Shown here piece after piece: positions 44,923-64,000 of a stretch of 64,000 nucleotides of DNA (the stretch's first letter is position 1; every line of letters starts with the position of its first letter). A program made the position numbers and the translations under genes. The DNA is from an uncultured Actinomycetota bacterium (GTDB lineage Bacteria; Actinomycetota; Acidimicrobiia; Acidimicrobiales; Palsa-688): the NCBI GenBank assembly GCA_963851105.1, contig CAWKNP010000012.1:9444-73443 (forward strand), given 5' to 3'. Below the pieces are notes generated by a model that was not told the DNA's origin, made no database searches, and saw only the letters and a program-made list of their open reading frames with translations.

Positions 44923-45525
44923 GTGTCCGCCCGGATCCTCGTCGTCGACAACTACGACAGTTTCGTCTACAACCTCGTGCAGTACCTGGGCGAGCTGGGC
45001 GCCGATCCGATCGTGTTCCGCCATGACGCCATCGACGCCGACGGCGTCGCCGCCATGACGCCGGCGGGAGTCCTCATCTCGCCGGGCCCTGGACGCCCGG
45101 AGGATGCCGGCGCCAGCAACGACGTGATCCTGGCGCTGGGCACCGCCGGTGTGCCGGTGCTCGGGGTTTGCCTCGGCCACCAGTGCATCGGCCAGATCTT
45201 CGGCGGTCGGGTTGTCCGGGCGAGGGCGGTCATGCATGGCAAGACCTCGCTCGTGCATCACAACGGCCAGGGCGTCCTGGCCGGCCTACCCGATCCCTTC
45301 CGGGCCACGCGGTACCACTCGCTGGTGGTCGACGCGGCGTCGGTGCCCCCCACCCTCGAGGTCACGGCGTGGACCGACGACGGCACCGTCATGGGCCTGC
45401 GCCACCGCGAGCTACCGATCGAAGGGGTGCAGTTCCACCCCGAGTCGATCCTCACCGACGAGGGCCACCGCCTGTTGGCCAACTGGCTGGCGCGCTGCGG
45501 CGCCGAGGTGCCTGCCGCCGGCTAA
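44923..45525 (+). CDS. trpG: anthranilate/aminodeoxychorismate synthase glutamine-amidotransferase component (TrpG/PabA)
   Basis: 'ILVVDNYDSFVYNLVQYL', catalytic 'GVCLGHQ', 'FHPES'. Confidence 0.85.
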   Translation: MSARILVVDNYDSFVYNLVQYLGELGADPIVFRHDAIDADGVAAMTPAGVLISPGPGRPEDAGASNDVILALGTAGVPVLGVCLGHQCIGQIFGGRVVRARAVMHGKTSLVHHNGQGVLAGLPDPFRATRYHSLVVDAASVPPTLEVTAWTDDGTVMGLRHRELPIEGVQFHPESILTDEGHRLLANWLARCGAEVPAAG

Positions 45526-47468: not shown

Positions 47469-47494
47469 CGCAGAGAGCCTGTCACACGACGCAT

Positions 47495-48961
47495 CTAGGG
47501 GCCTTGCAGGGCGGCGGTGAGGATCGCCTTGGCGATGGGGGCGGCGATGACGCCGCCGGTGGCCTCCCCGCCCTCGGGCTGGCTCTCGACGAGGACCGCG
47601 ACCGCCACCTTGGGCTGAGTCGCCGGGGCGAAGCACACGAACCAGGCGTGGATGGTGTTGTTGCCCGTCTGGGCGGTACCCGTCTTGCCCGCCACCTGGA
47701 TGCCGGGGATCTGGGCCGCGGTGCCGGTACCCGACTGGACGACCGATTGCATCAGCTGGGTCATCTGCGTCGCCGTCTCCGGCGAGGTGGCGGTCATCCA
47801 CGGCGACGGCTGGTACGTCCGCACGACCTGGCCTTGGGAGTTGGTGACCTGGGCGAGGACGTGCGGTGTCATCATGACGCCGCCGTTGGCGATGGCGCCC
47901 GCGATCATGGCCATGTTGAGCGGGACGGCCTGGACGTTCTGCTGGCCGATCGCCGACTTGGCCAGGCCCGGCAGGTCGTGGACGAAGCTGCTGGCCGGTG
48001 GAAACAGAGACTGGGCCGCTTCGGGGAGGTCGAGCGGGGGCGTCTTGTCGAAGCCGAAGCTGATCGCCTCGTCGGCCAGGGACTGGGGCCCGAGGTCGAG
48101 GCCGATGGCCGCGAAGCCGCTGTTGCACGACACCCGGAACAGGTCCGGCAGGGTCCCGCCGCACACCTCGCCCCCGAAATTGCGCAGCAGCTGGCCGCCC
48201 GTCTGGGGGAGAGGCAGGGCCGACAGCTGTGGGTAGACCTTGGTGGCCAGCGTGGGGTTCTTGTCGAAGACCGCCGACGAGGTGATCACCTTGAATGTCG
48301 ACCCGGGGAAGAAGCGCTGGCGGAAACTGGCGGCCAGCAGGGGCTGGTCGGGGCTGGCATTTTGCGCCTGCCAGTAGGTGCGGACCTGCTGCTGATCGTG
48401 CGACGACAGCGGGTTGGGGTCGAACGACGGATTGCTGTACATGGCGAGGATGGCCCCGGTGGTCGGATCGAGTGCCACGACTGCGCCCTTGCGGGCGCCT
48501 AGCTGGTTCTTGGCCAGCTGTTGCAACTTGTCGGAAAGCGTCAGCGTCACCGTCTGGCTCTTGTCCTGCTTGACCGTCAGGTCCTTCAGGCTGTGGGGGA
48601 GTTGCAGCGGGCTGTTGGCGCCGGTCAGGTCGGCATCGAAGCTGCGCTCGGCGCCCTCGAGCCCGTAGGTGAAGGAGAAAAAGCCGGTGATCTGGCCGAA
48701 CAGGTCGCCCCGGGGATAGGTCCGCAGATACTTGAGCGCGTCCGACGTCGGCTGTGAGTGGGCCAGGACGACTCCATCGGACGACGTGATGTCGCCCCGC
48801 TTGGTCGTGAACTTGGCCAGCGCCAGGCGGGTGTTCAGATGGTTGTGATCCAGGTTGGACGCCCGGACGACCTGGATGTAGTTGAGCTGGAGGAACAGCA
48901 GGACGAACAGCACGGCGATGCCGACGCCCGCGATGCGGATCTGGCGGTTCATGCGGTTCAC
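47495..48961 (-). CDS. pbpA: class B penicillin-binding protein PbpA
   Basis: 'GSTFKVITSSA' (SxxK), 'SCNSGFA' (SxN), 'AGKTGTAQ' (KTG). N-terminal transmembrane segment. Confidence 0.9.
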   Translation of the reverse strand: MNRMNRQIRIAGVGIAVLFVLLFLQLNYIQVVRASNLDHNHLNTRLALAKFTTKRGDITSSDGVVLAHSQPTSDALKYLRTYPRGDLFGQITGFFSFTYGLEGAERSFDADLTGANSPLQLPHSLKDLTVKQDKSQTVTLTLSDKLQQLAKNQLGARKGAVVALDPTTGAILAMYSNPSFDPNPLSSHDQQQVRTYWQAQNASPDQPLLAASFRQRFFPGSTFKVITSSAVFDKNPTLATKVYPQLSALPLPQTGGQLLRNFGGEVCGGTLPDLFRVSCNSGFAAIGLDLGPQSLADEAISFGFDKTPPLDLPEAAQSLFPPASSFVHDLPGLAKSAIGQQNVQAVPLNMAMIAGAIANGGVMMTPHVLAQVTNSQGQVVRTYQPSPWMTATSPETATQMTQLMQSVVQSGTGTAAQIPGIQVAGKTGTAQTGNNTIHAWFVCFAPATQPKVAVAVLVESQPEGGEATGGVIAAPIAKAILTAALQGP

Positions 48962-50295
48962 GCCGCCACCGTGAAGTCGGCGGCCGCCCCGGCCGCCACG
49001 ATCTCCGGCGCCGAGGAGTCATTGCTGATCCGCAGCAGCAGCGCCAGCAGGATGTAGTTGGCGATGAGGCTGCTGCCGCCGTAGCTGACGAACGGCAGCG
49101 TGATGCCCGTCAGCGGGATGATCCGGGTAACGCCGCCCAGGATCACGAAGACCTGAACGCCGATGATGAGCGAGAGCCCGGTGGCCAGGAGCTTGTCGAA
49201 CGGCCGCTCGCAGCGCACCGCGATACGCAGGCCGGTGCCTACCATGAGGAGGAACGCGGCCACGACGGCGACGGCACCGAACAGCCCGAGCTCTTCCGCG
49301 ATGGCGGCAAAAATGAAGTCCGTCGCCACCTCGGGGATCCGCTGCGGGCTGCCGAGGCCGGGACCGTCGCCGAACACACCGCCGGCGGCCATGGCGAACT
49401 GCGCCTGGATGATCTGGTAGCCAGTGGTGTTGTAGTGGGGCCACGGGTTGCGCCACGTACCGATCCGGGTCTTGGCGTGGCCGATCACCTTGGCCGCGAA
49501 GGCGGCGCCGACAGCGAACAGGACAGCGCCGATGGCGAGGTATTCGTTGCGGCCGGTCGAGACCCACAGCATGCTGACGAACAGTGCGAAGAACAAGAAC
49601 GAACTGCCCAGGTCGTTCTCGAAGGTGAAGATGGCGAGCGACAGGCCCCATGCCACGACCAGCGGCGCCAGGTACTTCGGGTCGACGAACAAATAGCGCC
49701 CGACCTTCAGGGTCCCCTGCGAGAGGAGTTCGGCGCGTTCGACCATGTAGGAGGCAAAGAACACCGCGAGGGCGATCTTGGCCAGCTCGCCGGGCTGGAA
49801 GGTCACGCTGCCGACGCGGATCCACAGCCGGGCGCCGTTGATGTTCTGGCCCACGACCGGCAGGAGGGGCATGAGCAGCAGCCCGATGCCGAGGAAGGCG
49901 AAGATATAGCGGTAGCGCTCGAGGTCCCGGGCCTTCTTGACCACGAACAGGGTGAGGAGGAACGCACCGATGCCGATGGTCGTCCACAGGGCCTGCAGGC
50001 CCGCGAGGTGGCGGTTGAGGCGGGCGATGAACACGTAGCCGACACCGTTGAGCAGGGCCGCGGTGGGCAGGAGGATCGGGTCGGCGTAGGGGGCCAGCTT
50101 GCGCATCCCGAGATGGGCGAGGACGAGGAGCCCGCAGATGATGCCGAGGAAGGGGCCGATGTTGGCGGGCAGAGAGCCCGCCTTGCCCAGGCTGGCCAGT
50201 ACGTAGAGGCCCGCGGTCAGCATGATCGCGAGCACGATCAGGCCCAACTCGGTCCGGCGGCGCGCCGGCAGACGGTAAGTGGAATTGGCGATCAC
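48958..50295 (-). CDS. rodA: FtsW/RodA/SpoVE-family peptidoglycan polymerase (RodA)
   Basis: Ten transmembrane segments, 'FQPGELAKIALAVFFASY' signature. Stop overlaps the pbpA start. Confidence 0.9.
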   Translation of the reverse strand: MIANSTYRLPARRRTELGLIVLAIMLTAGLYVLASLGKAGSLPANIGPFLGIICGLLVLAHLGMRKLAPYADPILLPTAALLNGVGYVFIARLNRHLAGLQALWTTIGIGAFLLTLFVVKKARDLERYRYIFAFLGIGLLLMPLLPVVGQNINGARLWIRVGSVTFQPGELAKIALAVFFASYMVERAELLSQGTLKVGRYLFVDPKYLAPLVVAWGLSLAIFTFENDLGSSFLFFALFVSMLWVSTGRNEYLAIGAVLFAVGAAFAAKVIGHAKTRIGTWRNPWPHYNTTGYQIIQAQFAMAAGGVFGDGPGLGSPQRIPEVATDFIFAAIAEELGLFGAVAVVAAFLLMVGTGLRIAVRCERPFDKLLATGLSLIIGVQVFVILGGVTRIIPLTGITLPFVSYGGSSLIANYILLALLLRISNDSSAPEIVAAGAAADFTVAA

Positions 50296-50299
50296 CAGG

Positions 50300-51580
50300 T
50301 CACCGGTGGGGCACGGTCGTCGCCACCGTCGTGGTCGGGGCGGTGGTGGTGGTCGTGGTCGTGGTCGTGGTCGTTGTGGTCGTCGTGGCGTTGTTGATGT
50401 AGTCGAGGGCGGCTTGCAGCGACGGTTCTTCCTTGCCTTCCTTCACCGCCGGCTGATAGCTGGCGGCCACGTCGGTCAACTTGACGCCGGTGCTCTTGGC
50501 CACCGTCGGCTGAAACCACAGCAGGCCGCCCGGGCGACCCTTGTAGACCGTGAGGAGGTCGTGGTCGAGGCCGACGAAGTACGTTCCGCGGGCGTAAAGG
50601 GCAACCGCCACGCCCGCGCCGCCCACCAGAGCGATCAGTAGGGCCAGGAAGGCGACGACCCGAAGCGTGATGGGCCGGGACTTGACCACGACCGGAACGT
50701 CTTGCCGGCGGGCACGGCTGCGGCGGCCATCGGGGGGCCCGGTAGTTCCCGCCCCCTTTTTCCCCGGCTGTTCGTCGGACTCCACTGGCGGGATGGGGGA
50801 GGGGATGAACACACCGGGATTGGTTTTCAGCGCCTCCGACGCGACCAGAGGCAGGTCCCCGTCATCGACCACGTCGATGATCACCACCGTGATGTTGTCG
50901 TTGCCCCCCCGGTTCTTGGCCGCGTTCACCAGCTCCCGGGCGGCGTCGTCGGCCTCTGCCAGGCGCCGCAGGATGCTGGCGATCTGGGTGTCGTTCAGTT
51001 CCCGGGAGAGGCCGTCGCTGCACAGCAGCAGACGGTCGCCCTTGAGCGGCAGGACCTGCAATACGTCCACGCTGACCTCGGAATCCACACCCAGGGCCCG
51101 GGTGAGGACGTGGCGTTGGGGGTGGACGGTCGCCTCGACCTCGGAGAGCTGGCCGTCGTCGACCAGTTCCTGGACCAGGCTGTGGTCGGTCGTCAGCTGT
51201 TCCAGCTCGCCGCCTCGCAGCAGGTAGACGCGGGAGTCGCCCACATTGATGATCGCCAGGCGATCCTCGCCGTCCTCGCTGACGAGGGCCACCGCCACGA
51301 GCGTCGTGCCCATGCCGTGGAGGTCGGGGTTCGCCTGGGCCCGGTCCCAGATGGAGCGATTGGCTTGGTGGGTGGCCTCGACCAGGCCCTCGGTCCCGCT
51401 CTTGCGCTCGTAGGCCGCTTTGAGGGCTTCCACCGCCGCCAGCGATGCCACTTCCCCGGCCGCGTGGCCACCCATGCCGTCGGCCACCGCGAACAGGTCG
51501 GCGGTGACGAGGAGCTGGTCCTGGTTGGATGTCCGGACACGCCCGATGTCGGTGGCGGCGCCCGCTCGGAGGGTGGTCAT
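50300..51580 (-). CDS. pstP: PP2C-family Ser/Thr phosphatase PstP with transmembrane segment and extracellular Thr-rich tail
   Basis: 'DIGRVRTSNQDQ', 'FAVADGMGGHAAGEVAS', 'LCSDGLS', 'GGNDNITVVI'. Poly-Thr is encoded by (GTCGTG)n on the plus strand. Confidence 0.9.
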   Translation of the reverse strand: MTTLRAGAATDIGRVRTSNQDQLLVTADLFAVADGMGGHAAGEVASLAAVEALKAAYERKSGTEGLVEATHQANRSIWDRAQANPDLHGMGTTLVAVALVSEDGEDRLAIINVGDSRVYLLRGGELEQLTTDHSLVQELVDDGQLSEVEATVHPQRHVLTRALGVDSEVSVDVLQVLPLKGDRLLLCSDGLSRELNDTQIASILRRLAEADDAARELVNAAKNRGGNDNITVVIIDVVDDGDLPLVASEALKTNPGVFIPSPIPPVESDEQPGKKGAGTTGPPDGRRSRARRQDVPVVVKSRPITLRVVAFLALLIALVGGAGVAVALYARGTYFVGLDHDLLTVYKGRPGGLLWFQPTVAKSTGVKLTDVAASYQPAVKEGKEEPSLQAALDYINNATTTTTTTTTTTTTTTAPTTTVATTVPHR

Positions 51581-52054
51581 CGGGACAGCTCGAGGACCGA
51601 TTTGCCCACCTGCAGTCGGTCGCCCTTGTGGAAGGCAACCGTGCCGGTGACCGGGCGGTCGTTGACGAAGGTCCCGTTGGTGGAGCCCAGATCCTCGACG
51701 AACAGGGAGCCATCGCGGCGAAATACCCGGGCGTGGAGGGTCGAGACAAAGGTATCGTCAGGCAGGGAGATGCCGCAGCCGATGGCCCGGCCGACGGTGA
51801 GTTCGTCGCCCAGTTCGAACGACTGGCCGTACTGGTCGGCGGGCTCGAGCACCACCAGCCGTTCCGGGGCGTTGCCGGCCCATGGCGCCCGGTTCTCGCG
51901 CGCCGCGGCGGGCGGGGGCGGGGGCCGCCACCGCGATCTGGACCGACTTCGGTTCCCGCAGCTCGGCCCACACCGCCCGCAGGACGCGGATGAAGAACAG
52001 GTAGAGCAGGCCGAGGAAGATCAGCTTGAGGGCGGTGAGGAGGGAATCAGGCAT
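51577..52054 (-). CDS. fhaB: FhaB/FipA-like protein (transmembrane + FHA domain) with an apparent +1 frameshift in a G/C-rich run
   Basis: N-terminal transmembrane segment 'MPDSLLTALKLIFLGLLYLFFIRVLRAVW' in one frame. FHA domain 'LVVLEPADQY...TVGRAIGCGISLPDDTFVSTLHARVF...EDLGSTNGTFVN' in the +1 frame. The frames diverge near the GGGCGGGGGCGGGGGCC run around 51900. Confidence 0.65.
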
Positions 52055-52061
52055 CGTGGGC

Positions 52062-52721
52062 CTACTGGGCCTCGAAGCGCAGGTGGGTCGAACCGATGGT
52101 GATCTCGTCGCCATGATGCAGCCGGTGGGTGTGGACCACGACACCATTGACCTTGGTGCCGTTCGTGCTTCCCAGGTCGGCCACGAGGTAGCCGCCGTCG
52201 CCGTCGGTGGCCGGGCGGACCTCGACGTGGCGGCGGCTGGCGTTGGCGTCGGCCAGCACGATCTCGCATTCCGGCAGGCGACCGATGGTCACCGGTGTGC
52301 TCCCGAGGCGGTAACGGCTGCCGTCGCGCAGGACGAGCTCCGCGGGACCGCCCGCCGCCGCGCTCATGGTTCCCGACACCAGCACGATGCCCGGTGAAAG
52401 GTCGTCATCGGTGGTCATCTCGATCGAAACCGCCCCGAGGAAGATGTAGTTCTCGGCGCGGGCGTGCTCGCGCGCCGCGGTGACGAGCTCGTCGATCAGT
52501 TCCTTCTCGATGGGTGCGAAACGCTCCCGGTCAGCGGGACCGAGGGTCACGGTGAACTGGTTGGGGGTGAGAGTGCCGCGGGGCGCAACGGTGCGGTTGA
52601 CATCCATTTCGCGGGTGAGGCGGCGCCCGATCTCGACGGGTTGCAACCCGCTGCGAAACGCCTTCGCGAAGGCGCCTTCGACGAGGCGCTCGAGCCGTCG
52701 CTCGAACTGCTGGAGTCCCAT
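52062..52721 (-). CDS. fhaA: FhaA-like protein (DUF3662 N-terminal domain + C-terminal FHA)
   Basis: 'MGLQQFERRLERLVEGAFAKAF' N-terminus. C-terminal 'YRLGSTPVTIGRLPECEIVLADANASRRH...DLGSTNGTKVNG' FHA. Confidence 0.85.
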   Translation of the reverse strand: MGLQQFERRLERLVEGAFAKAFRSGLQPVEIGRRLTREMDVNRTVAPRGTLTPNQFTVTLGPADRERFAPIEKELIDELVTAAREHARAENYIFLGAVSIEMTTDDDLSPGIVLVSGTMSAAAGGPAELVLRDGSRYRLGSTPVTIGRLPECEIVLADANASRRHVEVRPATDGDGGYLVADLGSTNGTKVNGVVVHTHRLHHGDEITIGSTHLRFEAQ

Positions 52722-52785
52722 GGTCGCCCAGATGCTATCGAGGCGGGGCTGCTCGCCGGGGAGCGCTAATCTGACGGTTCCACTC

Positions 52786-52869
52786 GGGCGAGTGGCGGAA
52801 TAGGCAGACGCGCAGGATTCAGGTTCCTGTGTCCGAAAGGATGTGGGGGTTCAAGTCCCCCCTCGCCCA
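52786..52869 (+). tRNA. tRNA-Leu (anticodon CAG), long variable arm
   Basis: GGGCGAG/CTCGCCC acceptor, GCGGAATAGGCAGA D-arm, CAGGA-TTCAGGT-TCCTG anticodon arm, variable stem-loop, GGGGG-TTCAAGT-CCCCC T-arm. Confidence 0.85.
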
Positions 52870-52905
52870 CCGCAGGCGCGGTCGGCGCCGCTGCGCCACC
52901 CGGGG

Positions 52906-54186
52906 CTACGCCAGGGCGCAGCTCCAGGTCAGGTGGCCCGACAGCGGCGCCGCGCCAGGCTCGCTCAGGGGCAGGTTGGCGAACTGGAGGTCGCCTCCGC
53001 CGCTGGGTTGCACCGTCAGCACCGCCGTGGTGGCGGTGGTGGCCGACCACGACCGGTAGCGGGAGGCGTTGCTGGCGGTGGCCGACAACGAAAGGTCGGG
53101 GCGTTTGTACGTCCCGGGGGCCCCGGTCCCCGGTGGAAGCCCGAAGTCGAGGTGGAACGTCGAGCCGTCCGCCAACTTGGCCGCGAACGCCCAGCTGGAG
53201 CGCTGCGCCGCCTGGAGACAGGTGCCGCCCGACTGGAACTTGGGCACCACCTGGGTCGCGGCCACAGTTTGGGTGTTGATGGTCCCGCTTATATTGAGGG
53301 GGCCCTGCAGGCGGGCGTGTCGGATGGACGGGAAGACTTTGGCGACCGCCCGGTGCAGTGAACCGGAGCTGCCCACGGCGTCAACGCCCAGCCCCGCCAG
53401 GACCAGCAGCACCAAAAAGGCGGGGCCCAGGCAGCCACAGCCCCGGCGCCTGCGGGCGGTTGTACCCCCTTGGTTGTTGACTGCGCCGGTGGAAGTGCTG
53501 GCGCCGGCGTTGGCCGCCCTGGCGGCGTTGGAGACGGCGGCGGCGGTCGCCATGGCCCCCATGATCGATTGCATGGTCTCGATGGCCGAGGCGGCATCGG
53601 GGGCGGCGACTTCGTCGACCCGTATGACCCGCCAGCCGTCGCCCGTTCCGATCGGGGTGCCGCAGAAGCGGCAAGTCCCACCGACGCTCTCGGAGAGCAG
53701 GGCGCCACAGTTGCCGCAACGCTCCCCGGCGCCCGCCCGGGACGTCTCGGCGCTGGCGGGACGCTGGAAGCACCAGTTCTCGATGTGCCGTTCTTCCTTG
53801 CCCCGCTTTCCCTCGGTCGGTCGCCAGTGGGAGCTGAAGTGCACGACGATGGTGTCGTGGCTGGCGTCGGACGCGATCGAGACCAGCTGGCCGCTCTCGG
53901 CATCGTCGTCGGCGGGCGCCACGACCCGTTGTTCCCGGCAGGCCTCTTCGATGGCCCCGCGATGGCGCTCCATGAGCGGGGGGGCCAGGACGCCGGCGCT
54001 CAGCTCCGGTTTGCAGCGGGCGTAGGCCTGGCCGACCAGCCAGAACGCCTGCTGGGCCTCGGCGAGGAAGGAGTCCAGGTTGAACAGGTGATCGCGGGCC
54101 GCAATGGTTGCGACGGCCTGGGCCACGCTCTCGGGATCGGGCGCCATGTGGGGGGTGCCTCCGAAAGGAAACGGCGGGTCGGTCAT
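52906..54186 (-). CDS. hypothetical membrane protein: cytoplasmic N-domain, zinc ribbon, one transmembrane segment, extracellular C-domain
   Basis: 'CGNCGALL...CRFCGTPIG' zinc ribbon. 'GCGCLGPAFLVLLVLAGLGV' transmembrane segment. 426 aa. Confidence 0.55.
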   Translation of the reverse strand: MTDPPFPFGGTPHMAPDPESVAQAVATIAARDHLFNLDSFLAEAQQAFWLVGQAYARCKPELSAGVLAPPLMERHRGAIEEACREQRVVAPADDDAESGQLVSIASDASHDTIVVHFSSHWRPTEGKRGKEERHIENWCFQRPASAETSRAGAGERCGNCGALLSESVGGTCRFCGTPIGTGDGWRVIRVDEVAAPDAASAIETMQSIMGAMATAAAVSNAARAANAGASTSTGAVNNQGGTTARRRRGCGCLGPAFLVLLVLAGLGVDAVGSSGSLHRAVAKVFPSIRHARLQGPLNISGTINTQTVAATQVVPKFQSGGTCLQAAQRSSWAFAAKLADGSTFHLDFGLPPGTGAPGTYKRPDLSLSATASNASRYRSWSATTATTAVLTVQPSGGGDLQFANLPLSEPGAAPLSGHLTWSCALA

Positions 54187-54317
54187 GGCGCAGCAACCCT
54201 CGAGTCGAGGATCGGTTCACCTTTGCCTGCGGTCCTCGCGCCCATGACCTGCCCCCCTTGCCCCGCGGCCCCCGCATCCCCGCTGCTTGAGCATAGGAGT
54301 CCCGGTAGGGTTCGCAC

Positions 54318-54890
54318 GTGTCCGAGTTCACTGCGTCTGGGTTCACCGCCCGCCTGCGAGAAATCGTGATGGACCCGGCGGTGCTCACGCACCTGGCGGA
54401 GCCCATCCGGCTGGCGTCGGGGGAGATGAGCCGGGACTTCATCGACGCCAAACTGGCCGTGGACGACGCCGACGATCTCGCCCTGGCAGGCACGGCGATG
54501 GCGGCCGCAGCCGCCGATGCCGGGGTCGACTACGACGCCGTGGGCGGCCTCGTGCTCGGCGCCGTCCCCTTCACGTTCGCGGTTGCCCAGTCGGCACGCT
54601 GCCGGTGGTTTCTCATCCGCAAAGAGCCCAAGGGGCGGGGCACCGATCGCTGGGCGGAGGGCGCCCGTCTCGGCCCCGGGACCCGGGTCATGCTGGTCGA
54701 CGACGTCATTACCACCGGAGGCTCGATCCAGCAGGCGTATGAGAGAGTTGCCGCCGAGGGCGCCCGCGTGGTCTTCGCCACCACCCTCGTCGACCGCGGC
54801 GACGCCGCCGCCGCCTTCTTCCGTCAGGCCGGGGTTCCCTACCGGCCCATGTTGACCTACCGCGACCTGGACATCGCGCCGGTCGGATAG
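54318..54890 (+). CDS. phosphoribosyltransferase (OPRT-like type I PRTase)
   Basis: 'VMLVDDVITTGGS' PRPP-binding motif; 190 aa. Confidence 0.7.
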   Translation: MSEFTASGFTARLREIVMDPAVLTHLAEPIRLASGEMSRDFIDAKLAVDDADDLALAGTAMAAAAADAGVDYDAVGGLVLGAVPFTFAVAQSARCRWFLIRKEPKGRGTDRWAEGARLGPGTRVMLVDDVITTGGSIQQAYERVAAEGARVVFATTLVDRGDAAAAFFRQAGVPYRPMLTYRDLDIAPVG

Positions 54891-54894
54891 ATAC

Positions 54895-56382
54895 TTACTT
54901 CGGGAGCTGGTTGGCCTTGAACCAGGCGTCGATCTTGGCCTGGGCTTGCTGTTGTAACTGAGGCATGACCGTCGCCGGGTTGGCACCGCCCACGATCTGG
55001 CCGAAGGCGGCGGACATCAGGTCGTGGACATCGGCGAACGCCGGGAGCCATGCATCATTCTCGGCGGAAGCTTCGGGCAGTCCTGCGACCCAGACGGAGG
55101 GATCAACCCCGACAGCCTGCTTGATTCCTTGCCCGAAGGCGTCGCCGTTGGCCGTCAAACCCGCCATGACCCCGAAGCCGCCATAGGACAACTCACGCTC
55201 GCGCGCCGGCTCGACGGCGAAAAACTTGAGGACCTCCCACGCCAGGTCGTGGTGGGCGCTGGCCGCGACGATGGATCCCAAGCTCACCTCGAGGAAGTTG
55301 AACCGCCGGGCGGGGCCCGCGGGCAGGGGCGCGGCCCGCCACGCGAAGGGGACCTGCGACGCGAACGGACTGTTGAGTTCGCAGCTGCACAGATCGATCA
55401 TGGCCAGCTTCCCCGCCCGCCACGCCGCCAGCTCCTCAGTGCCGGGTGCCGCCCCGGGGGCCAGTTGCGCGATCTGAGCGGGCGTGGGATGGACGTGGTA
55501 CTTGTTGACCAGGTCGGCGGCGAACTGGGCGCCGGCGATGGCCGCCGGGGTGTCGAGAATGGCCTGGCGCTTTGCCGGGTCGTAGAGGTGGCCGCCGAAG
55601 CTGAACAACGACGCTTCGGGCCGGAATCGGGCGGCCCCGAAACGGGTGACCTTGGTGATGTCGAACCCCGCCTGGCCTGGGTGCTTTCCGTCACTATCGA
55701 CCGTCAACGCCTGGGCCGCCTGCAGGAATGAACCGGTCAGCAACCAGGAATTGTCCGACCATGAAGACGGTGGCGGCTGGACGCCGGCATGGGAAAAAAG
55801 GTCGACGTTGTAGGCCAGGGCGTGGTCGTGGAACCCGAGCGGGAGACCGGGGATGGCTTTGGTCCGCCCGTAGTAACTGGGCAGGGTGGTGGCCGCCGTT
55901 GCCTGCGATTGAAAGGCACTCATCGCCACGCCGTCACGGTGGATGAGGGCCTGGAGATCCAACCAGACGTGACGATCCACCAGGCGCGACACCTCCCCCA
56001 GCCCGATGCCGAGGACGATGTCGGGTGCCGAACCGCGGGCGATCAGTGCCGCCAACTGGGTTTCCGCGGCGGCCGCCGACGACGCCCGCAGGAAGTCGAT
56101 CCCCACCTGGGGGTGGGCGGCGATGAAGGCCTGGGCCAGCGCCTGCTGCACCTGGCGTTGCGGCGCCGTGTTGCCACCGTCGAAGCCAACGAGGATCTGG
56201 ACCCGCCCGACCAGCTTCGGGGGAGCCGACTGGTGGGTGCCGTGCTGACACGCTGCCAGCAGCGCCGCGGCGCCCGAGACCGAGACGCCGAGATTGAGGG
56301 CGTCGCGCAAGAAATCACGGCGTGTCAATCGGCCGAAGCCGTAGGCACTCAGGAGATCCTTCGTCGACGCAGGGCCGCTCAT
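54895..56382 (-). CDS. ABC transporter extracellular solute-binding protein (family 1, sugar-type), Tat/lipoprotein-type signal
   Basis: 'LTRRDFLRDALNLGVSVSGAAALLAAC' twin-Arg signal plus lipobox Cys. About 470-aa mature domain. Start at M45 of the track ORF. Confidence 0.85.
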   Translation of the reverse strand: MSGPASTKDLLSAYGFGRLTRRDFLRDALNLGVSVSGAAALLAACQHGTHQSAPPKLVGRVQILVGFDGGNTAPQRQVQQALAQAFIAAHPQVGIDFLRASSAAAAETQLAALIARGSAPDIVLGIGLGEVSRLVDRHVWLDLQALIHRDGVAMSAFQSQATAATTLPSYYGRTKAIPGLPLGFHDHALAYNVDLFSHAGVQPPPSSWSDNSWLLTGSFLQAAQALTVDSDGKHPGQAGFDITKVTRFGAARFRPEASLFSFGGHLYDPAKRQAILDTPAAIAGAQFAADLVNKYHVHPTPAQIAQLAPGAAPGTEELAAWRAGKLAMIDLCSCELNSPFASQVPFAWRAAPLPAGPARRFNFLEVSLGSIVAASAHHDLAWEVLKFFAVEPARERELSYGGFGVMAGLTANGDAFGQGIKQAVGVDPSVWVAGLPEASAENDAWLPAFADVHDLMSAAFGQIVGGANPATVMPQLQQQAQAKIDAWFKANQLPK

Positions 56383-56684
56383 AGTCAGATTTCTTCTTTC
56401 GCCTGTGGCCCGCCAAGGGTGTGTCGCACGACGCCCCGAGTCTTGCTGGAATCGCGCTGAGGTTGGGTAATGGCATCTGCCGGCGCCCGCGAACGGCCCG
56501 TGGAAGCGACGCAAGGGATCCTCTGAACGACATCTGATACCAAGATTTACCTTTGTCCGTTGCGTCGGCTACTCTCATGGAGATCAACGGTCAATCGTAC
56601 GGGCTTGGGCTGGTTCGGCGGTTTGGACATACTTCTTGAAGCTGACGCAGATCTCGTCAGCATCTGTCAGGGGAAAAGAATCAG

Positions 56685-59600
56685 ATGAAGCGCAGCAAGC
56701 GTCCCGAGGACTCGGGCGTGCCGTCGTCGACCGAAGAGGTCGACTCCATTTTCCGTTTCAGTGAGCGTCATTTGGGTATACGGCACCATCGTCACAATGA
56801 AGGACGTTTTGCCGTCGGGGGCACAAGGGGGATGGTGAAGATGGGCAACCGGTTGCGAGGGGGCACCCAATCGAGTCCAGGAGACCGCCGGCTGCTTCGG
56901 GGCCACGGCCTGAGGTCTTTGCGCGGGCCCGGTTCGGGCGCGGACTCCCCGTCCCGACCCGGGCGCCGCGTCGTCCAGGGCCTGGTGGCCCTGGCGATCG
57001 GTGTCGCCCCCTTTGCCATTGGTATCCCCGCCGCCTTGGCGGGCGTCGGCTTCGGCGTCACCCCGAACTTCCCGTCGAATGTCACCGTCGGCGACAGCGG
57101 AACGCCGGCATCCCTGCAGATCCAAAACACCGCCAATGGCGCGCAGTTCCACCTCACGGCGACGCTCTCCACCATCAACTTGGTCCCGGCGTGCGGTTCG
57201 ACCGGGTTCACCCCCACCGGCGACTGCCCCGCGGCCGACGCGCAACCCGGGGTCTTCCAGTTGAGTCCGACCGGTAGTGGTGAGGCCGGGACTGCCTGCG
57301 CAGGAAAGACCTTCACGATCACTGTCATCGATCCCGCCACCGGGCAGGTGACGTTCACCCCCGTGGGGGGCCCCGTGATCCTCGGTCCCGCCGACGGTCT
57401 CGGACCGCTTTCCCCGGTCTGTCGCATCGATTTCACGTTCAGCGTCCTTAGGGAACCAACCATCGACGCCGACCCGGCACCCGGTATCCAGACGGCGGAG
57501 CTGGGTTTCGCCCAAGGCACCACGAGCGACGGCGTTCCCGGTTCGGGCCTCGGCTCCAACCTCACCACCGTTGCCAAGGCCCAGCCGGCTCTGACGACGA
57601 CCGCGACCACGACCGGCAGGGTGGGCGCCCCGATCACTGACACCGCCCACCTCGTGGCGGCGGCGCCTCCCGCGCCCGCCCCCACCGGGACCATCACCTT
57701 CACCCTGTTCACTACCGCCAACTGCACCGGCCCGGGCGTGTTCACCTCCACAGTGACCGTGACCTCCGGCGGTGGCAATTACACCTCGGGACCGTTCACA
57801 CCGACCGCGCCCGGCACATACAAATGGATCGCGGCCTACAGCGGCGACGCCAACAACGCTGCCCTCACCACCGCCTGCGGTGACCCCGGCGAGACCAGCA
57901 CGATCTCCCGACGGACCCCCGCCATCGTCACCACTGCCTCGGCGCCAACCACAATTGGCGGCCCGATCTCGGACAGCGCAGTGCTTTCCGGCGGGTTCAA
58001 CCCCACCGGCTCGATCGTCTTCAACGTGTTCGGCCCGAACGACGCCACCTGTACGAGGGCGGTGGCTTTCACCTCCACGGTGCCGGTCGCCGGCAATGGC
58101 ATCTACAACTCGGGGCCGTTCATCCCGACCGCACCCGGCTCCTATAACTTCGTCGCCAGCTACAGCGGTGACGCCAACAACGCGCCGGTGACCAGCGCCT
58201 GCGGCGCCGCCAACGAGAACACCACCGTCAACAAGGCGACTCCCGCCATCGTCACCACCGCTTCGGGCGCCGGCCCCGTCGGGGGGACCATCGCCGACAG
58301 CGCGGTCCTGTCCGGCGGTGTTGCCCCCACGGGGACCATCGTCTTCAAGGTCTTTGGCCCCAACGACGCCACCTGCACCGGAGCGGTGGCGTTCACGTCG
58401 ACGGCGACAGTGAACGGCAACGGCACCTATCCCTCGGCCAACTTCACGACCACCGCCGCCGGCACGTACCGGTTCGTGGCCTCCTACAGCGGCGACGCCA
58501 ACAACGCCGCGGTCACGACGTTGTGCAGCGACCCGGCCGAGGCGGTCGTCGTCACCAGGGCCACCCCTGCCATCGTGACGACGGCTTCGCCGACGGTGCC
58601 CGCCGGCGGCGCCATAAGTGACACCGCCACCCTTTCCGGCGGCGTGGCTCCAACGGGAACGATCACCTTCACCCTCTTCGGCCCCGCCAACATCAACTGC
58701 ACCGGCGCCGCCATCTTCACCTCGGTCGTTGCGGTCGCCGGCAATGGCGTCTACCCCTCGGGACCGTTCACGGTGACCACGCCGGGGACGTACAACTGGG
58801 TGGCGGCCTACAGCGGCGACGCCAACAACGCCGCCGCCGTGAGCCCCTGCGGCGCCCCCAATGAATCGGTGATCGTCACCAAGGCCAACCCGGCCATCGT
58901 CACGCAAGCCTCCTCGTCGGTCCCCGCCGGCGGCCCGATCACCGACACCGCCACCCTGTCGGGCGGCGCCGCCCCCACCGGGTCGATCACCTTCACGGTG
59001 TTCGGCCCGAACAATGCCACCTGCACCGGGGCCGCTGTGTTCACCTCCACCGTGCCCGTCGCGGGCAACGGCAACTACACCTCAGCACCGTTCACCACTC
59101 CCGCCGCCGGGGTCTACCGCTTCGTCGCCGCCTATAGCGGCGATGCCAACAACACCGCGGTCACGACGGGCTGCAACGACGCCAACGAGAGCGTCATCGT
59201 CACCAAGGCGCCGCCCGCCATCGTGACCCACGCCTCGGCGCCCGTGGCGGCCGGCGGCACGATCCGCGACGTCGCCACCCTCTCCGGTGGCGTCAACCCA
59301 ACCGGCACCATCAGATTCACGGTCTTCGGCCCCAATGACGCCACCTGCTCCAGGGCGGCGATCTTCACCTCGATCCGGCCGGTCAGTTCCGGCAATGGCA
59401 ACTACTCCTCGGCACCGTTCACCGTCACGGTGGCCGGGACCTACCGCTTCATCGCGGCGTACAGCGGTGACGCCAACAACGTCGCCGTCGCCACGACGTG
59501 CAACGACGCCAACGAGAGCGTCGTCGTCAGCCCGGCGACGCCGGCCATCGTGACCAACGCCTCGGCGACGGTCCCCGCCGGCGGGCCGATCAGTGACTCC

Positions 59601-62600
59601 GCCACCCTCTCCGGCGGCGTCAACCCCACCGGGACGATCACCTTCACCGTCTTCGGTCCCAATGACGCCACCTGCACCGCGGCCCCCGCGTTCACTTCGA
59701 TCGTGGCGGTTACCTCGGGCAATGGCACCTACCCGTCGGGGCCGTTCGTGACCACGGCCGCCGGGACCTATCGCTTCATAGCGGCATACAGCGGTGACGC
59801 CAACAACGTCGCCGTCACCACGTTGTGTAACGACCCCAATGAGAGCGTTGTCGTTGGCCCCGCCAACCCGACCCTGGTCACGGCGGCCTCGGCGTCGGTT
59901 CCCGTCGGCGGCACGGTCAACGACACCGCGACGCTGTCGGGTGGCGTCAACCCGACGGGCACCATCACCTTCGAGTTGTTCGGCCCGACCCCGGGATGCA
60001 CCGGCGCTGCGATCTTCACCACCACCAAGCCCGTTTCCGGCAACGGCAACTACACGTCGGCTTCGTTCACCGTCACCGCGCCGGGTACCTACAACTTCGT
60101 GGCCTCGTACAGCGGCGACGCCAACAACGCGGCCATCCCGTTCACCGCCTGCGGCGCCGCGGGCGAGAACGTGACCATCACCAAGGCGGCCCCGGCCATC
60201 GTGACCACCGCGAGCGCCCCGACGCCTGCCGGCGGCCCCATCAGTGACACCGCCACCCTTTCCCTCGGTGTCGCCCCCACCGGCACGATCACGTTCTCCA
60301 TCTACGGCCCGAACAACGTCGGGTGTACCGGTGCCGCCATCTTCACCTCCACCAAGGCAGTCAACGGCAACGGCAACTACACCTCGGACCCGTTCACCAC
60401 GTCGGTGGCCGGGACCTACCGCTTCATCGCCGCCTACAGCGGTGACGCCAACAACAGCGCCGTGACCTCCGGCTGCAACGACGCCAACGAGAGCGTGCTG
60501 GTGACGCCCGCGGCGCCCGCGATCATCACCCACGCCTCGGCGACGGTCAGCGCCGGTGGCGCCATCGCCGACACCGCTACCCTCTCGGGCGGCGTCAACC
60601 CGACCGGGACCATCACCTTCACCCTGTTCGGCCCCAACGACGCGACCTGCGCCCGCGCCGCCGTCTTCACCTCGGTCAAGGCGGTCAGCGGCAACGGCGA
60701 CTACACCTCCGCCAGCTTCGTTGCGAATGCCGTAGGGACCTACCGCTGGGTGGCCGTCTACAGCGGCGACGCGAACAACGCCGGCGTCACCAGCGCCTGC
60801 AACGCGGCCAACGAGAGCGTCGTCGTCACCAAGGCGCCACCGGCCATCGTGACCGTCGCCTCGGCGTCGACGCCGGTGGGTGGATCCATAACCGACACCG
60901 CCACGCTGTCGGGCGCCGTCAACCCGACCGGGACGATCACCTTCAACGTGTTCGGCCCCAATGACGCCACGTGCGCCAACGCGCCGGCGTTCACCTCCAC
61001 CAAGGCGGTCAGCGCCAACGGCAACTACACCTCCGATCCCTTCATCGTGACCGTGGCCGGCACCTACCGCTTCACGGCCGCGTACAGCGGCGACGGCAAC
61101 AACTTGGCGGTTACTACGGCGTGCAACGACGCCAACGAGAGCGTCGTGGTCGGCCCGACGACGCCCACCATCGTGACCGTCGCCTCGGGCCCGGTGCTCG
61201 CCGGCGGCGCCATCAGCGACACCGCCAGCCTGACCGGCGGCGTAGACCCCACCGGAACGATCACCTTCACCGTGTTCGGCCCCGACAACGCCACCTGCAG
61301 CGGTCCCGCCGTCTTCACCTCGATCAAGACGGTCACCGGCAATGGCAACTACACCTCGGACCCGTTCACAGCAACGGCCGCCGGCACCTACCGTTTCATC
61401 GCCACCTACAGCGGTGACGCCAACAACATCGCCGTCCACAGCGGCTGCAACGACGCCAACGAGAGCGTGGTCGTCCGCCCCCGGTCCCCGATAATCGTGA
61501 CCCAGGCGTCGGCTCCGGTGACCCTCGGGGGCACCATCAGCGACACCGCCAGCCTGACCGGCGGCATCGCCCCGACCGGCACCATCGTCTTTACCGTCTT
61601 CGGCCCGAACAACGGCACCTGCACCGGAGCCGCAGCGTTCACGGCGACCGTTACGGTGACCGGCAACGGCAACTACTCCTCGGGCCCCTTCACCCCGACG
61701 GCCCCTGGTACCTACCGCTTCGTCGCCACCTACAGCGGTGACGCCAACAACTCCCCCGCCGGGCCGACCGCGTGCGGCGATCCCGCCGAGTCGGTTGTCG
61801 TATCCACCGCCAACCCGACCATCGTCACCCATGCCTCGCCATCGGTCCCGGTAGGCGGAACGATCACCGACACCGCCACCCTTGCCGGCGGCAACGCCCC
61901 CACTGGCACCATCACCTTCCAGGTGTTCGGGCCGGACAACACCACCTGCACCGGTATCCCGGCGTTCACTTCAACCAAGACGGTCGCCGGCAACGGCAAC
62001 TACACCTCGGATCCGTTCATGGTGCCGGCCGCCGGCGCCTACCGCTTCGTGGCGACCTACAGCGGCGACGCCAACAACAGTCCCGCTGGACCCACATCCT
62101 GCTCCGATGCCAACGAGGTGTCGTCGGGCAACAAGGTCAGCCCGGCCATCGCCACGATCGCCTCGGCCGGGGTCTCGGTCGGTGCTGCCATCAAGGACAC
62201 TGCCATCCTGACCGGCGGCTTCAACCCCACGGGCACCATCACCTTCAATCTGTTCGGCCCCAACAACACAACCTGCACCGGGGCGGCCGCCTTCACCGGC
62301 TCGGTCCCTGTGCACGGCAGCGGCAACTACGACTCACCGCCGTTCACCCCGACGGCACCGGGCAATTACACCTTCGTGGCCACCTATAGCGGCGACACCA
62401 ACAACAACGCCGCGGGACCGACCACGTGCAACGACCCCAACGAGACGGTGGTGGTCAGCTTCGTCGCCGCCAGCATCTCCACCACCGCGTCGCCCGCCGC
62501 CGACGTCGGCCAGCCCGTCTTCGACACCGCGACCCTTGGTAGTTCGGGCCACCCGACCGGGACCATCACCTTCACCCTGTTCGGACCCAACGACGCCACC

Positions 62601-64000
62601 TGCACGGGTACGCCGGCGTTCACCTCCACCAAGACCGTCAACGGCGCCGGCACCTACACGTCGGACTCCTTCCTGCCGACGGCCCCCGGCACGTACTCGT
62701 TCGTGGCGACCTACAGCGGCGATGCCAACAATGCCGCCGCAGGACCCACGCCCTGCAACGACCCCGCCGAGCAGGTCACAGTGCTGCCCCGCCCGCAGAT
62801 CGCGGTAACCAAGTCCCCCAGTCCGACGACGCTGCCCGAGCCCGGAGGCAACTTCACCTTCACCGTCACCGTGCACAACCCGAGCTCAGTCGACCCGGTC
62901 AAGATCACGTCGCTGATCGACAACATCTACGGCGACCTCGCCACCCTGCCCGGTTCGACCTGCGGGACCCTTATCGGCGTCACGCTGGCCCCAGGGGCGA
63001 CCTCGCCGCCGTGCAGCTTCACCGGGCCCTTCCACGGCAGGGGTGGCGACAGCCAGACCGACACCGTGACGGTCACCGGCATCGACACCCAGGGGATCAC
63101 CGTCACGGCGTCCGCGCAGGCCACGGTGACGCTCACCGCCGTCCTTCCGGTGATCCACGTGACCAAGGCGGCCAGCCCGCTCACCAAGGTGGAGCCGGGT
63201 GGCATCTTCACCTTCACCGTCCAGGTGTCCAACCCGAGCACCATCGACCCGATCACGATCACCTCGCTGACCGACAACATCTACGGTGATCTCTCCACTC
63301 GGGCCGGCTCGACCTGCGGCGCCCTCATCGGCACCACCCTGGCGCCCGGTGCGAGTTCGCCACCGTGCAGCTTCACCGGGCCGTTCAACGGCAAGGGCGG
63401 CGACAGCCAGACCGACACCGTCACGGTGACGGGCATCGACAGCAACGGGCATACCGCGACCGATACCGCCCAGGCCACGGTGACCCTGACCAGCCTGACC
63501 CCGGTCATCGCGGTGACCAAGGCAGCCGACCCGCTGACCCGACCCGAGCCGGGCGGGACCTTCACCTTCACGGTGCAGGTATCCAACCCCTCGGCCACCG
63601 ATCCCATCAAGATCACGTCGCTGACGGACAACATCTACGGCGACCTGGCGACGCGGCCCGGTTCGACCTGCGGCGCCCTGATCGGCGTCGTCCTAGCCCC
63701 AGGAGCGGTATCGGCGCCGTGCTCGTTCACCGGTCCCTTCACCGGCCATGGGGGCGACAGCCAGACCGACACGGTCACCGTCCACGGCGTCGACTCCTTC
63801 GGGAACACCGCCTCGGCGACCGCCCAGGCCACCGTGACGCTGACCACGGTCAACCCGGAGATCAAGGTCACCAAGGCCGCCAACCCCCTCAGCCTCCCCG
63901 TCCCCGGCGGCAACTTCACCTTCACCGTGCAGGTGTCCAATCCCTCGACGGTCGATCCGGTCAAGATCACGTCGCTGGTCGACAACATCTACGGTGATCT
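56685..64000 (+). CDS. giant secreted/surface adhesin-like protein (3' partial): ~16 tandem 108-aa Ig-like repeats followed by four or more DUF11-like ~119-aa repeats
   Basis: Continuous plus-strand frame with no stop from 56646 to the window end (codons at 57081=GTC, 57781 'YTSGPFTPTAPGTYKWIAAYSGDANNA'). Repeat markers 'PAIVT' recur every ~324 bp from 57921 to 62470. 'VTK...PGG.FTFTV.VSNPS' recurs every ~357 bp from 62800. Alternative starts at 56832 or 56841. Hydrophobic segment at aa ~100. Confidence 0.85.
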   Translation, partial: MKRSKRPEDSGVPSSTEEVDSIFRFSERHLGIRHHRHNEGRFAVGGTRGMVKMGNRLRGGTQSSPGDRRLLRGHGLRSLRGPGSGADSPSRPGRRVVQGLVALAIGVAPFAIGIPAALAGVGFGVTPNFPSNVTVGDSGTPASLQIQNTANGAQFHLTATLSTINLVPACGSTGFTPTGDCPAADAQPGVFQLSPTGSGEAGTACAGKTFTITVIDPATGQVTFTPVGGPVILGPADGLGPLSPVCRIDFTFSVLREPTIDADPAPGIQTAELGFAQGTTSDGVPGSGLGSNLTTVAKAQPALTTTATTTGRVGAPITDTAHLVAAAPPAPAPTGTITFTLFTTANCTGPGVFTSTVTVTSGGGNYTSGPFTPTAPGTYKWIAAYSGDANNAALTTACGDPGETSTISRRTPAIVTTASAPTTIGGPISDSAVLSGGFNPTGSIVFNVFGPNDATCTRAVAFTSTVPVAGNGIYNSGPFIPTAPGSYNFVASYSGDANNAPVTSACGAANENTTVNKATPAIVTTASGAGPVGGTIADSAVLSGGVAPTGTIVFKVFGPNDATCTGAVAFTSTATVNGNGTYPSANFTTTAAGTYRFVASYSGDANNAAVTTLCSDPAEAVVVTRATPAIVTTASPTVPAGGAISDTATLSGGVAPTGTITFTLFGPANINCTGAAIFTSVVAVAGNGVYPSGPFTVTTPGTYNWVAAYSGDANNAAAVSPCGAPNESVIVTKANPAIVTQASSSVPAGGPITDTATLSGGAAPTGSITFTVFGPNNATCTGAAVFTSTVPVAGNGNYTSAPFTTPAAGVYRFVAAYSGDANNTAVTTGCNDANESVIVTKAPPAIVTHASAPVAAGGTIRDVATLSGGVNPTGTIRFTVFGPNDATCSRAAIFTSIRPVSSGNGNYSSAPFTVTVAGTYRFIAAYSGDANNVAVATTCNDANESVVVSPATPAIVTNASATVPAGGPISDSATLSGGVNPTGTITFTVFGPNDATCTAAPAFTSIVAVTSGNGTYPSGPFVTTAAGTYRFIAAYSGDANNVAVTTLCNDPNESVVVGPANPTLVTAASASVPVGGTVNDTATLSGGVNPTGTITFELFGPTPGCTGAAIFTTTKPVSGNGNYTSASFTVTAPGTYNFVASYSGDANNAAIPFTACGAAGENVTITKAAPAIVTTASAPTPAGGPISDTATLSLGVAPTGTITFSIYGPNNVGCTGAAIFTSTKAVNGNGNYTSDPFTTSVAGTYRFIAAYSGDANNSAVTSGCNDANESVLVTPAAPAIITHASATVSAGGAIADTATLSGGVNPTGTITFTLFGPNDATCARAAVFTSVKAVSGNGDYTSASFVANAVGTYRWVAVYSGDANNAGVTSACNAANESVVVTKAPPAIVTVASASTPVGGSITDTATLSGAVNPTGTITFNVFGPNDATCANAPAFTSTKAVSANGNYTSDPFIVTVAGTYRFTAAYSGDGNNLAVTTACNDANESVVVGPTTPTIVTVASGPVLAGGAISDTASLTGGVDPTGTITFTVFGPDNATCSGPAVFTSIKTVTGNGNYTSDPFTATAAGTYRFIATYSGDANNIAVHSGCNDANESVVVRPRSPIIVTQASAPVTLGGTISDTASLTGGIAPTGTIVFTVFGPNNGTCTGAAAFTATVTVTGNGNYSSGPFTPTAPGTYRFVATYSGDANNSPAGPTACGDPAESVVVSTANPTIVTHASPSVPVGGTITDTATLAGGNAPTGTITFQVFGPDNTTCTGIPAFTSTKTVAGNGNYTSDPFMVPAAGAYRFVATYSGDANNSPAGPTSCSDANEVSSGNKVSPAIATIASAGVSVGAAIKDTAILTGGFNPTGTITFNLFGPNNTTCTGAAAFTGSVPVHGSGNYDSPPFTPTAPGNYTFVATYSGDTNNNAAGPTTCNDPNETVVVSFVAASISTTASPAADVGQPVFDTATLGSSGHPTGTITFTLFGPNDATCTGTPAFTSTKTVNGAGTYTSDSFLPTAPGTYSFVATYSGDANNAAAGPTPCNDPAEQVTVLPRPQIAVTKSPSPTTLPEPGGNFTFTVTVHNPSSVDPVKITSLIDNIYGDLATLPGSTCGTLIGVTLAPGATSPPCSFTGPFHGRGGDSQTDTVTVTGIDTQGITVTASAQATVTLTAVLPVIHVTKAASPLTKVEPGGIFTFTVQVSNPSTIDPITITSLTDNIYGDLSTRAGSTCGALIGTTLAPGASSPPCSFTGPFNGKGGDSQTDTVTVTGIDSNGHTATDTAQATVTLTSLTPVIAVTKAADPLTRPEPGGTFTFTVQVSNPSATDPIKITSLTDNIYGDLATRPGSTCGALIGVVLAPGAVSAPCSFTGPFTGHGGDSQTDTVTVHGVDSFGNTASATAQATVTLTTVNPEIKVTKAANPLSLPVPGGNFTFTVQVSNPSTVDPVKITSLVDNIYGD

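Follow-up and report, generated by a model that had tools for sequence, protein, structure and literature searches.

What is encoded at the right-hand end of a 64,000-nucleotide stretch of DNA from an uncultured Actinomycetota bacterium (contig CAWKNP010000012.1, positions 9,444 to 73,443; hereafter the window, whose own numbering is used throughout), where a very long open frame is absent from the list of open reading frames (ORFs)? An earlier reading made from the letters alone (the sequence-only reading) had proposed a single giant gene for a secreted tandem-repeat surface protein, and the analysis described here supports that proposal. We consider it likely that a single gene of an Acidimicrobiia-like actinobacterium lies here and that its product is a monomeric, fibrillar protein of the cell surface, a sortase-anchored chain that bears a head on a stalk of immunoglobulin-like (Ig-like) domains. 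This view builds on direct results: an open frame, a domain composition and a unit count, the folds of the models (Ig-like and cohesin-like), the orthologs and the sorting signals of the orthologs. Calling the protein an adhesin is a guess at function, though a reasonable one, from the architecture.

In the proposed mechanism a long N-terminal signal peptide would export the protein. The mature chain would consist of a β-sandwich head of ~184 amino acids (aa), which is the presumed ligand-binding tip, followed by 16 Big_3_5 domains and about 6 DUF11 domains, and its C-terminus would carry an LAxTG motif with a membrane helix and an Arg cluster behind it. Covalent attachment to peptidoglycan would be the work of a class E-type sortase, and the head would thereby sit many tens of nm out from the wall. 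The features of the locus and of the remainder of the window are collected in Table 1.

One open frame accounts for the listed ORFs

Plus-strand frame 3 is free of stop codons from 56646 to 63998, the end of its last complete codon within the window, a run of 2451 codons. The GC contents of the three codon positions of this frame (GC1, GC2 and GC3) are 0.54, 0.62 and 0.89. The window is 68.1% GC, and a GC3 of 0.89 is the coding signature of a real gene in a genome of ~68% GC. The long antisense ORFs at 56667-58907 and 59082-61832 give the mirrored pattern, with GC1 of 0.85-0.93 and GC3 of 0.52-0.57. All 34 listed ORFs of at least 80 aa within the region are shadows of the one real frame. The sequence-only reading had called them antisense artefacts; artefacts they are, but only 23 are antisense and the other 11 use the two remaining frames of the sense strand. 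That reading was correct that one plus-strand frame continues to the window edge and that the giant gene is missing from the ORF track, the latter because the program drops any ORF that is still open where the sequence ends. Its worry that an in-frame stop or a frameshift had been overlooked can be set aside: no stop interrupts the 7.3 kb, and no frameshift is indicated, one collinear BLASTP alignment to four full-length orthologs spanning the whole ORF.

Searches with the giant protein gave 433 homologs at E≤1e-10. Five orthologs (P0002-P0006) align collinearly at 68-80% identity, the closest being P0003 (80%) from an Acidimicrobiaceae metagenome-assembled genome (MAG), and no copy of at least 90% identity was present in the searched collections. 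End-to-end collinear orthologs occur in Acidimicrobiales and Acidimicrobiaceae MAGs.

Table 1 Features of the giant-gene locus and of the rest of the window
Feature	Position	Strand	Description and evidence
Divergent intergenic region and 5′ leader	56383-56840	.	Between the solute-binding-protein gene (minus strand, ATG at 56382) and the giant gene
Coding sequence of the giant surface protein, 5′ part	56841-63998	+	2386 codons from the favored start, cut by the window end; open frame, GC3, homologs
Predicted signal peptide	56841-57041	+	67 aa; by inspection
N-terminal non-repeat head domain	57042-57593	+	184 aa, 4 conserved Cys; without a Pfam or NCBIfam model
Stalk part 1, 16 tandem Big_3_5 Ig-like units	57594-62792	+	107-109 aa (321-327 bp) and 2 invariant Cys each
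Stalk part 2, DUF11-type 118-aa units	62793-63998	+	Three complete units plus the first 48 aa of a fourth
Complete DUF11-type units	62793-63146, 63147-63500, 63501-63854	+	118 aa and 2 Cys each
Secreted paralog	29585-30955	+	456 aa; two Big_3_5-type units, then an unrelated C-terminal region; BLASTP, Big_3_5 scan
Wall and division cluster	44722-56382		GATase (trpG/pabA-like), pknB, pbpA, rodA, PP2C pstP, fhaB, fhaA, then phosphoribosyltransferase and solute-binding-protein genes; syntenic with ortholog locus L003
tRNA-Leu(CAG)	52786-52871		In the wall and division cluster region
426-aa protein	52906-54186	-	Weak Tim44-like N-terminal domain (below the Pfam cut-off), CxxC...CxxC, membrane helix, Ser/Thr/Ala-rich C-terminal part
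Second large putative surface protein	15284-19015	-	1243 aa; four He_PIG putative Ig domains (E=2.2e-40)
Eco57I-type methylase	3160-4863	-	
Tyrosine integrase	6518-7660	+	
N6/N4 DNA methylase	20895-22643	+	

Start codon and export signal

The sequence-only reading placed the start at ATG 56685 and consequently described an unusual, hydrophilic N-terminus of about 100 residues. This feature is not supported, since it arises only from that choice of start: ATG 56685 falls inside the intergenic and leader region, and translation from it would put ~96 hydrophilic residues before the first hydrophobic segment. At 56736-56825 the GC content drops to 0.47-0.62 and the in-frame GC3 to 0.40-0.55; a Shine-Dalgarno-like AAGGGGG lies 9 nucleotides upstream of ATG 56841; and ortholog N-termini read MGHQGQ.., MGIRRQ.., MGHEGQ.. 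(internal) and MANRLSSGEG.. as compared with MGNRLRGGTQ from ATG 56841. Taken together these observations favor ATG 56841 over ATG 56685, and we take the former as the probable start codon. Similarity to the orthologs, both of protein and of DNA, starts only at the RRxVQGLVAL segment.

The predicted presequence begins with a basic, Gly/Ser/Arg-rich n-region of ~42 aa that includes an RR pair and continues with the 24-residue hydrophobic core VVQGLVALAIGVAPFAIGIPAAL, the hydropathy peak being at 56973-57030. At the predicted cut ALA stands before GVGFG and the orthologs have AFA, AYA or AVA followed by G (that is, AxA-G is conserved), so the signal peptide is probably cleaved after ALA. On inspection, then, the protein has the N-terminal secretion signal of a sortase substrate in the form of a basic n-region, a core and AxA-G. 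Its n-region exceeds the usual length, which is a genuine if minor oddity.

The 458-bp leader gave no riboswitch or other RNA element in an Rfam search and contains no sigma-70-like promoter, and the ortholog leaders show no DNA conservation with it. A terminator-like hairpin of 7 GC-rich base pairs at 56726-56744 (+), followed by TCCATTTTCC, lies inside the N-terminal extension proposed by the earlier reading; it is not above shuffle expectation and is without conservation in orthologs.

The stalk is built of Big_3_5 and DUF11 domains

The first and longer part of the stalk had been described as about 16 copies of a 108-aa unit. With unit borders set by anchoring on the YSGD motif there are exactly 16, and the unit is that of Pfam family PF16640 Big_3_5, the group 3 bacterial Ig-like domain (246.2 bits versus a cut-off of 35.5, E=2.7e-74, 16 stretches). 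Tandem Repeats Finder reported a period of 324 bp with 14.3 copies and 71% matches at 57774-62412. The 16 units have 18 invariant positions, two Cys among them, in common with the two units of a secreted paralog encoded elsewhere in the window. Modeling one unit had been suggested by the sequence-only reading. The AlphaFold2 model of unit 5, made with all 18 of these units aligned as input, has seven strands and a mean predicted local distance difference test score (pLDDT) of 96.8, and the predicted structure is the Ig-like β-sandwich expected for Big_3_5. By Foldseek the nearest solved folds were repeat (stalk) domains of Gram-positive adhesins, for example that of Clostridium perfringens Cpe0147, with template modeling (TM) scores of 0.68-0.75, identities of 13-17% and weak E-values (from 2e-3). 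We read this resemblance of a model to adhesin stalk domains as a generic Ig-like match.

The second part of the stalk begins where the sequence-only reading had the repeat type switch (62793), and its likeness to DUF11 also held, but the period is 354 bp rather than ~357 bp. Tandem Repeats Finder gave 3.3 copies of the 354-bp period at 62835-63994 with 77% matches. When the residues encoded by 62760-63998 were scanned alone, Pfam PF01345 DUF11 matched in 4 stretches with 32.6 bits versus a cut-off of 24.6, and the related family DUF7507 reached 13.6 bits versus a cut-off of 27; DUF11 was not listed in the scan of the whole protein at E≤0.01.

The window protein has 42 Cys residues: 4 in the head, two in each of the 16 Big_3_5 units and two in each of the 3 complete DUF11 units. 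All 42 sit at conserved paired positions, which is consistent with one putative disulfide per repeat domain. Sequence searches of the PDB, with single sequences and with profiles, gave nothing significant for the Big_3_5 unit or the DUF11 segment, and the same was true of the head.

The head belongs to a large family without a model

Between the signal peptide and the first repeat lies the head domain, which had no Pfam match at E≤10 and no NCBIfam match. An exhaustive HMMER search with the domain nevertheless retrieved 724 cluster representatives at E≤1e-3, 497 of them at E≤1e-10. It typically begins at about residue 37, right behind the signal peptide, in proteins of 260-1070 aa; in some proteins (e.g., P0121, P0122 and P0128) it is present in 2-3 tandem copies, and the partner domains of the family include Big_3_5, DUF7507, PKD and FG-GAP among others. 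Short proteins that consist of little beyond the head domain go by the name 'hypothetical protein' and lack a precomputed Pfam family. Searches for the domain in genome contigs found only two distant loci, L001 and L002, and in metagenome contigs there was no match.

The AlphaFold2 model of the head, made from a 16-sequence alignment (pLDDT 95.4), is an all-β sandwich that is both cohesin-like and adhesin-like. The cohesin modules that it resembles are those of Clostridium perfringens glycoside hydrolases and of cellulosomes (2vo8 and 2w1n). A role of the head as a binding module is plausible.

The 16-unit array is old and has kept its number

The sequence-only reading took the DNA repeats to be near-identical and saw in them substrates for length variation. 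Neither claim is borne out for the Big_3_5 array. DNA identity between Big_3_5 units averages 69% and ranges from 60 to 80%, mean protein identity is 62%, third codon positions are 59% identical and the longest exact DNA word common to two units is 34 bp. Moreover, all four complete orthologs (P0002, P0004, P0005 and P0006, 68-73% identical) have 16 Big_3_5 units, and 11-12 of the 16 window units match best the unit at the same ordinal position in each ortholog. The shared unit number and the positional register across orthologs argue that the array predates these species and that both number and order have been kept. We therefore read the 16-unit array, from its sequence, as old and positionally conserved and not as a rapidly varying repeat tract.

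A length- or phase-variable adhesin, in which near-identical repeats recombine or slip so that their number shifts between strains, would differ from this array in both respects. Such changes do occur in the wider family: the arrays of distant relatives in the Solirubrobacteraceae (P0009 and P0028) are homogenized, with mean unit identities of 81-84%, and another relative, P0001, carries 27 units. The number of DUF11 units also differs among the four complete orthologs, which have 5 or 6. Homogenization and change in number thus appear real for the family but are not supported for the window gene. A contingency-type repeat gene has near-identical repeats in variable number, and here the Big_3_5 units have diverged as described and are 16 in five of five genes from independent assemblies, whereas the DUF11 units are 75-77% identical to one another and share exact words of no more than 23 bp. 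For the Big_3_5 array the length-variable interpretation is largely refuted, and we hold it to be very improbable for the gene.

The same divergence bears on whether the array might be an assembly artefact or the gene a pseudogene. Collapse and expansion are classic faults in the assembly of long repeat arrays and the window comes without read support, but repeats of 60-80% identity are easily resolved by assemblers and collapse is unlikely because the repeats have diverged. Alignment to independently assembled orthologs is collinear and gap-poor with the same number of units; the frame is uninterrupted over its 7.3 kb, and all 42 Cys and all invariant positions are retained. Hence, artefact or decay is the least credible of the explanations considered, and we regard it as extremely improbable.

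The predicted C-terminus and probable wall anchoring

When the window end is projected on the orthologs, 229-372 ortholog residues remain, which gives a predicted full length of ~2615-2760 aa (2736 aa from the closest relative). The window is predicted to hold the first 87-90% of a gene of ~8.2 kb. Six orthologs have complete C-termini, five with LALTG and one with IAFTG, and in each case a short polar spacer, ~20 hydrophobic residues and a basic tail follow (RRRR in four and RRR in two). The P0003 tail scored 17.8 bits with the NCBIfam model TIGR01167 LPXTG_anchor, the cut-off being 15.9. Class E sortases, which serve wall anchoring in soil and freshwater Actinobacteria, recognize LAXTG (PMC5148588). 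The window gene most likely carries the same sorting signal ~0.7-1.1 kb past the window end, and from it we infer the sortase anchoring step.

Several findings weigh against the picture of a sortase-anchored adhesin. The C-terminus of the window gene lies outside the window and its anchor is an extrapolation from orthologs, among which only P0003 passes the TIGR01167 cut-off. A scan of 30 window ORFs gave no sortase domain, there is no TLxTC-type motif in any sizeable frame of the 64-kb window, and no sortase showed up in the flanks of two ortholog loci, L003 (an Acidimicrobiales MAG, GCA_050744165.1) and L004; a housekeeping sortase gene located away from the substrate locus is not unusual. 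In more distant relatives that share the head and the stalk, the chain closes with ...LPLFTG and a stop and has no helix, which indicates that the C-terminal module is exchangeable between lineages. At the other end of the protein the RR pair before the hydrophobic core leaves room for the twin-arginine translocation (Tat) route besides the general secretory (Sec) route. The motif RRVVQG fits the Tat consensus only in part, and Tat export of a 2700-aa protein with many putative disulfides is unlikely. Finally, the head, Big_3_5 and DUF11 domains are without a known ligand or binding activity, and the fold matches are generic β-sandwiches of 13-17% identity.

Given the unseen C-terminus, the module swaps in distant relatives and the lack of a sortase nearby, the protein might instead be released, be held by an uncleaved N-terminal hydrophobic segment (the 24-residue core is long for a cleaved signal peptide) or end in another C-terminal module. 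However, the six closest relatives with a complete C-terminus all have the sortase-type signal, AxA-G after the hydrophobic core is conserved, and the start of the head family at about residue 37 is directly after signal peptides. A protein that is not wall-anchored is thus quite improbable, and we retain the wall-anchored surface protein as the favored reading.

Two other candidates for surface attachment were rejected. The hallmark of a sortase-polymerized pilin is absent: neither the window protein nor any of five orthologs has a pilin motif (YPK/PKN-type), and Lys accounts for only 1.2% of residues. A link to an exosortase came from a weak EpsH match 7 kb downstream in L003, but the ortholog tails are of the LAxTG type and not PEP-CTERM.

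The alternative ending seen in distant relatives is an observation in its own right. Of 274 retrieved relatives 18, some of them with head, Big_3_5 and DUF11, lack the LAxTG motif, helix and basic tail and close with a conserved domain of ~90 aa that contains two Cys and stops exactly at ...P-x-F-T-G (e.g., KLPLFTG*). This ending is found in L001 (22-4692 and 6116-9538) and in P0009, P0012, P0015, P0016, P0019, P0023, P0060, P0101, P0102, P0114 and others. It had no NCBIfam match, and in L001 no hydrophobic segment follows it in any frame. The P-x-F-T-G ending may be an undescribed C-terminal sorting or processing signal.

Genomic neighborhood and paralog

The giant gene adjoins, in divergent orientation, a solute-binding-protein gene with a Tat signal, and no co-transcription with its neighbors is evident because the genes diverge. 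Its neighborhood is shared with L003, and L004 shares the adjacent solute-binding-protein gene, which indicates that the window sequence is chromosomal and from Acidimicrobiia. In both ortholog loci a convergent second large gene (825-886 aa) lies directly downstream of the giant ortholog (L003 18492-21152 and L004 10250-12727, minus strand); its product has a weak Big_3_5 match in L003 and no Pfam match in L004. A gene for a YkuD L,D-transpeptidase and then a Peptidase_M15_4 gene come next in L003 and L004, and the same three genes probably lie just beyond the window end.

The conserved position beside the fhaA-pstP-rodA-pbpA-pknB wall and division cluster, together with the constant unit number, speaks for a rival reading in which the protein is not an adhesin. 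It could be a structural spacer or envelope component of fixed length, the 16 Big_3_5 units being under selection for a set distance of the head, or of the entire fibre layer, from the wall, with possible roles as a surface coat, as a hydration or defense layer or in cell-cell spacing. The window gene and all four complete orthologs do have 16 units despite 68-73% identity, with most of them in register. Nonetheless, the constancy of the count may only reflect that diverged repeats offer no recombination substrates, the varying DUF11 number means that total length is not fixed, and the neighborhood could be coincidental. We judge a spacer without adhesive function to be unlikely. A further reading is conceivable, if doubtful: the head would be the founding member of an undescribed ligand-binding family, borne on stalks of conserved length in soil Actinomycetota, and the 16 units a molecular ruler of fixed reach, possibly tied to the adjacent wall-growth and division cluster. 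The reading preferred here remains the anchored protein with a presumed binding head.

The secreted paralog with two copies of the 108-aa unit that the sequence-only reading had noticed was confirmed: it aligns with units 5-6 at 41% identity (BLASTP E=3e-36) and keeps 18 of the 18 invariant unit positions. Its two Big_3_5 stretches scored 24.9 bits, below the cut-off of 35.5. The C-terminal half of the paralog contains two copies of ~90 aa of an unrelated segment (…P.NGQ.NVD…W…) with no Pfam match, and a tRNA-Ala(TGC) gene (30997-31071) lies 42 bp downstream.

Elsewhere in the window, the 426-aa protein encoded within the cluster region has no gene at the corresponding position of L003. Judging by the two methylases and the integrase, the first third of the window may hold a mobile or restriction-modification island.

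Discussion

Proteins of this general design are well known. By definition, fibrillar adhesin-like (FA-like) proteins are single chains in which a non-repeat region at a terminus is joined to a rod of tandem stalk domains and a surface anchor; their standard layout in Actinobacteria has the head at the N-terminus, then the stalk, and the sortase motif at the C-terminus (PMC8286594). Like SdrG, Cna and the Cpe0147-type proteins (Monzon et al. 2021, PMC8286594), the window protein is a very long single chain with a signal peptide, an N-terminal tip domain and an Ig stalk, the last consisting of 16 Big_3_5 and at least 3.4 DUF11 units over 57594-63998. The likeness extends to the C-terminal sortase-type signal as seen in the six orthologs with complete ends, the corresponding part of the window protein being beyond the window. 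It is also the stalk domains of Cpe0147-type adhesins that superpose best on the unit model. The differences lie first in the presumed adhesive region, which here is a distinct N-terminal domain with a confident model that matches no known adhesive family, belongs to none of those listed for FA-like proteins and is without a Pfam model. In addition, Cpe0147- and Cna-type stalks have ester or isopeptide cross-links, whereas the invariant Cys residues of the window stalk suggest a putative Cys pair, and the lineage here is one of environmental Acidimicrobiia and not a pathogen.

A second comparison is with the chaplins ChpA-C, the class E sortase substrates of Streptomyces coelicolor (PMC5148588). 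The ortholog tails are alike in having L-A-x-T-G, a spacer, a helix and an Arg cluster; the phylum, Actinomycetota, is the same, and the closest MAG relatives share a soil or freshwater habitat. However, chaplins are small and amyloid-forming, in contrast to an Ig-repeat protein of ~2700 aa, and one ortholog has IAFTG. The third comparison shows no difference in kind: MAGs of Actinomycetota and Chloroflexota encode proteins annotated as 'Ig-like domain repeat protein' or 'beta strand repeat-containing protein' that have the same families (PF16640 with PF01345 DUF11 or PF24346 DUF7507) in the same order, and the closest are 68-80% identical over their full length. The giant protein is therefore of a well-known kind, with some novelty in the unnamed head family and the strictly conserved count of 16 units.

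The current understanding of surface proteins is unchanged by this gene. For the organism, the gene map is corrected, one gene of ~8.2 kb replacing 34 spurious ORFs, and an uncultured Acidimicrobiia lineage gains a major surface structure that is probably attached by an LAxTG sortase signal. For the family, domain curation and binding studies alike gain a concrete target in the unnamed head domain, and the stable, diverged 16-unit array set against the homogenized arrays of the Solirubrobacteraceae constitutes a small natural experiment on the evolution of repeat arrays.

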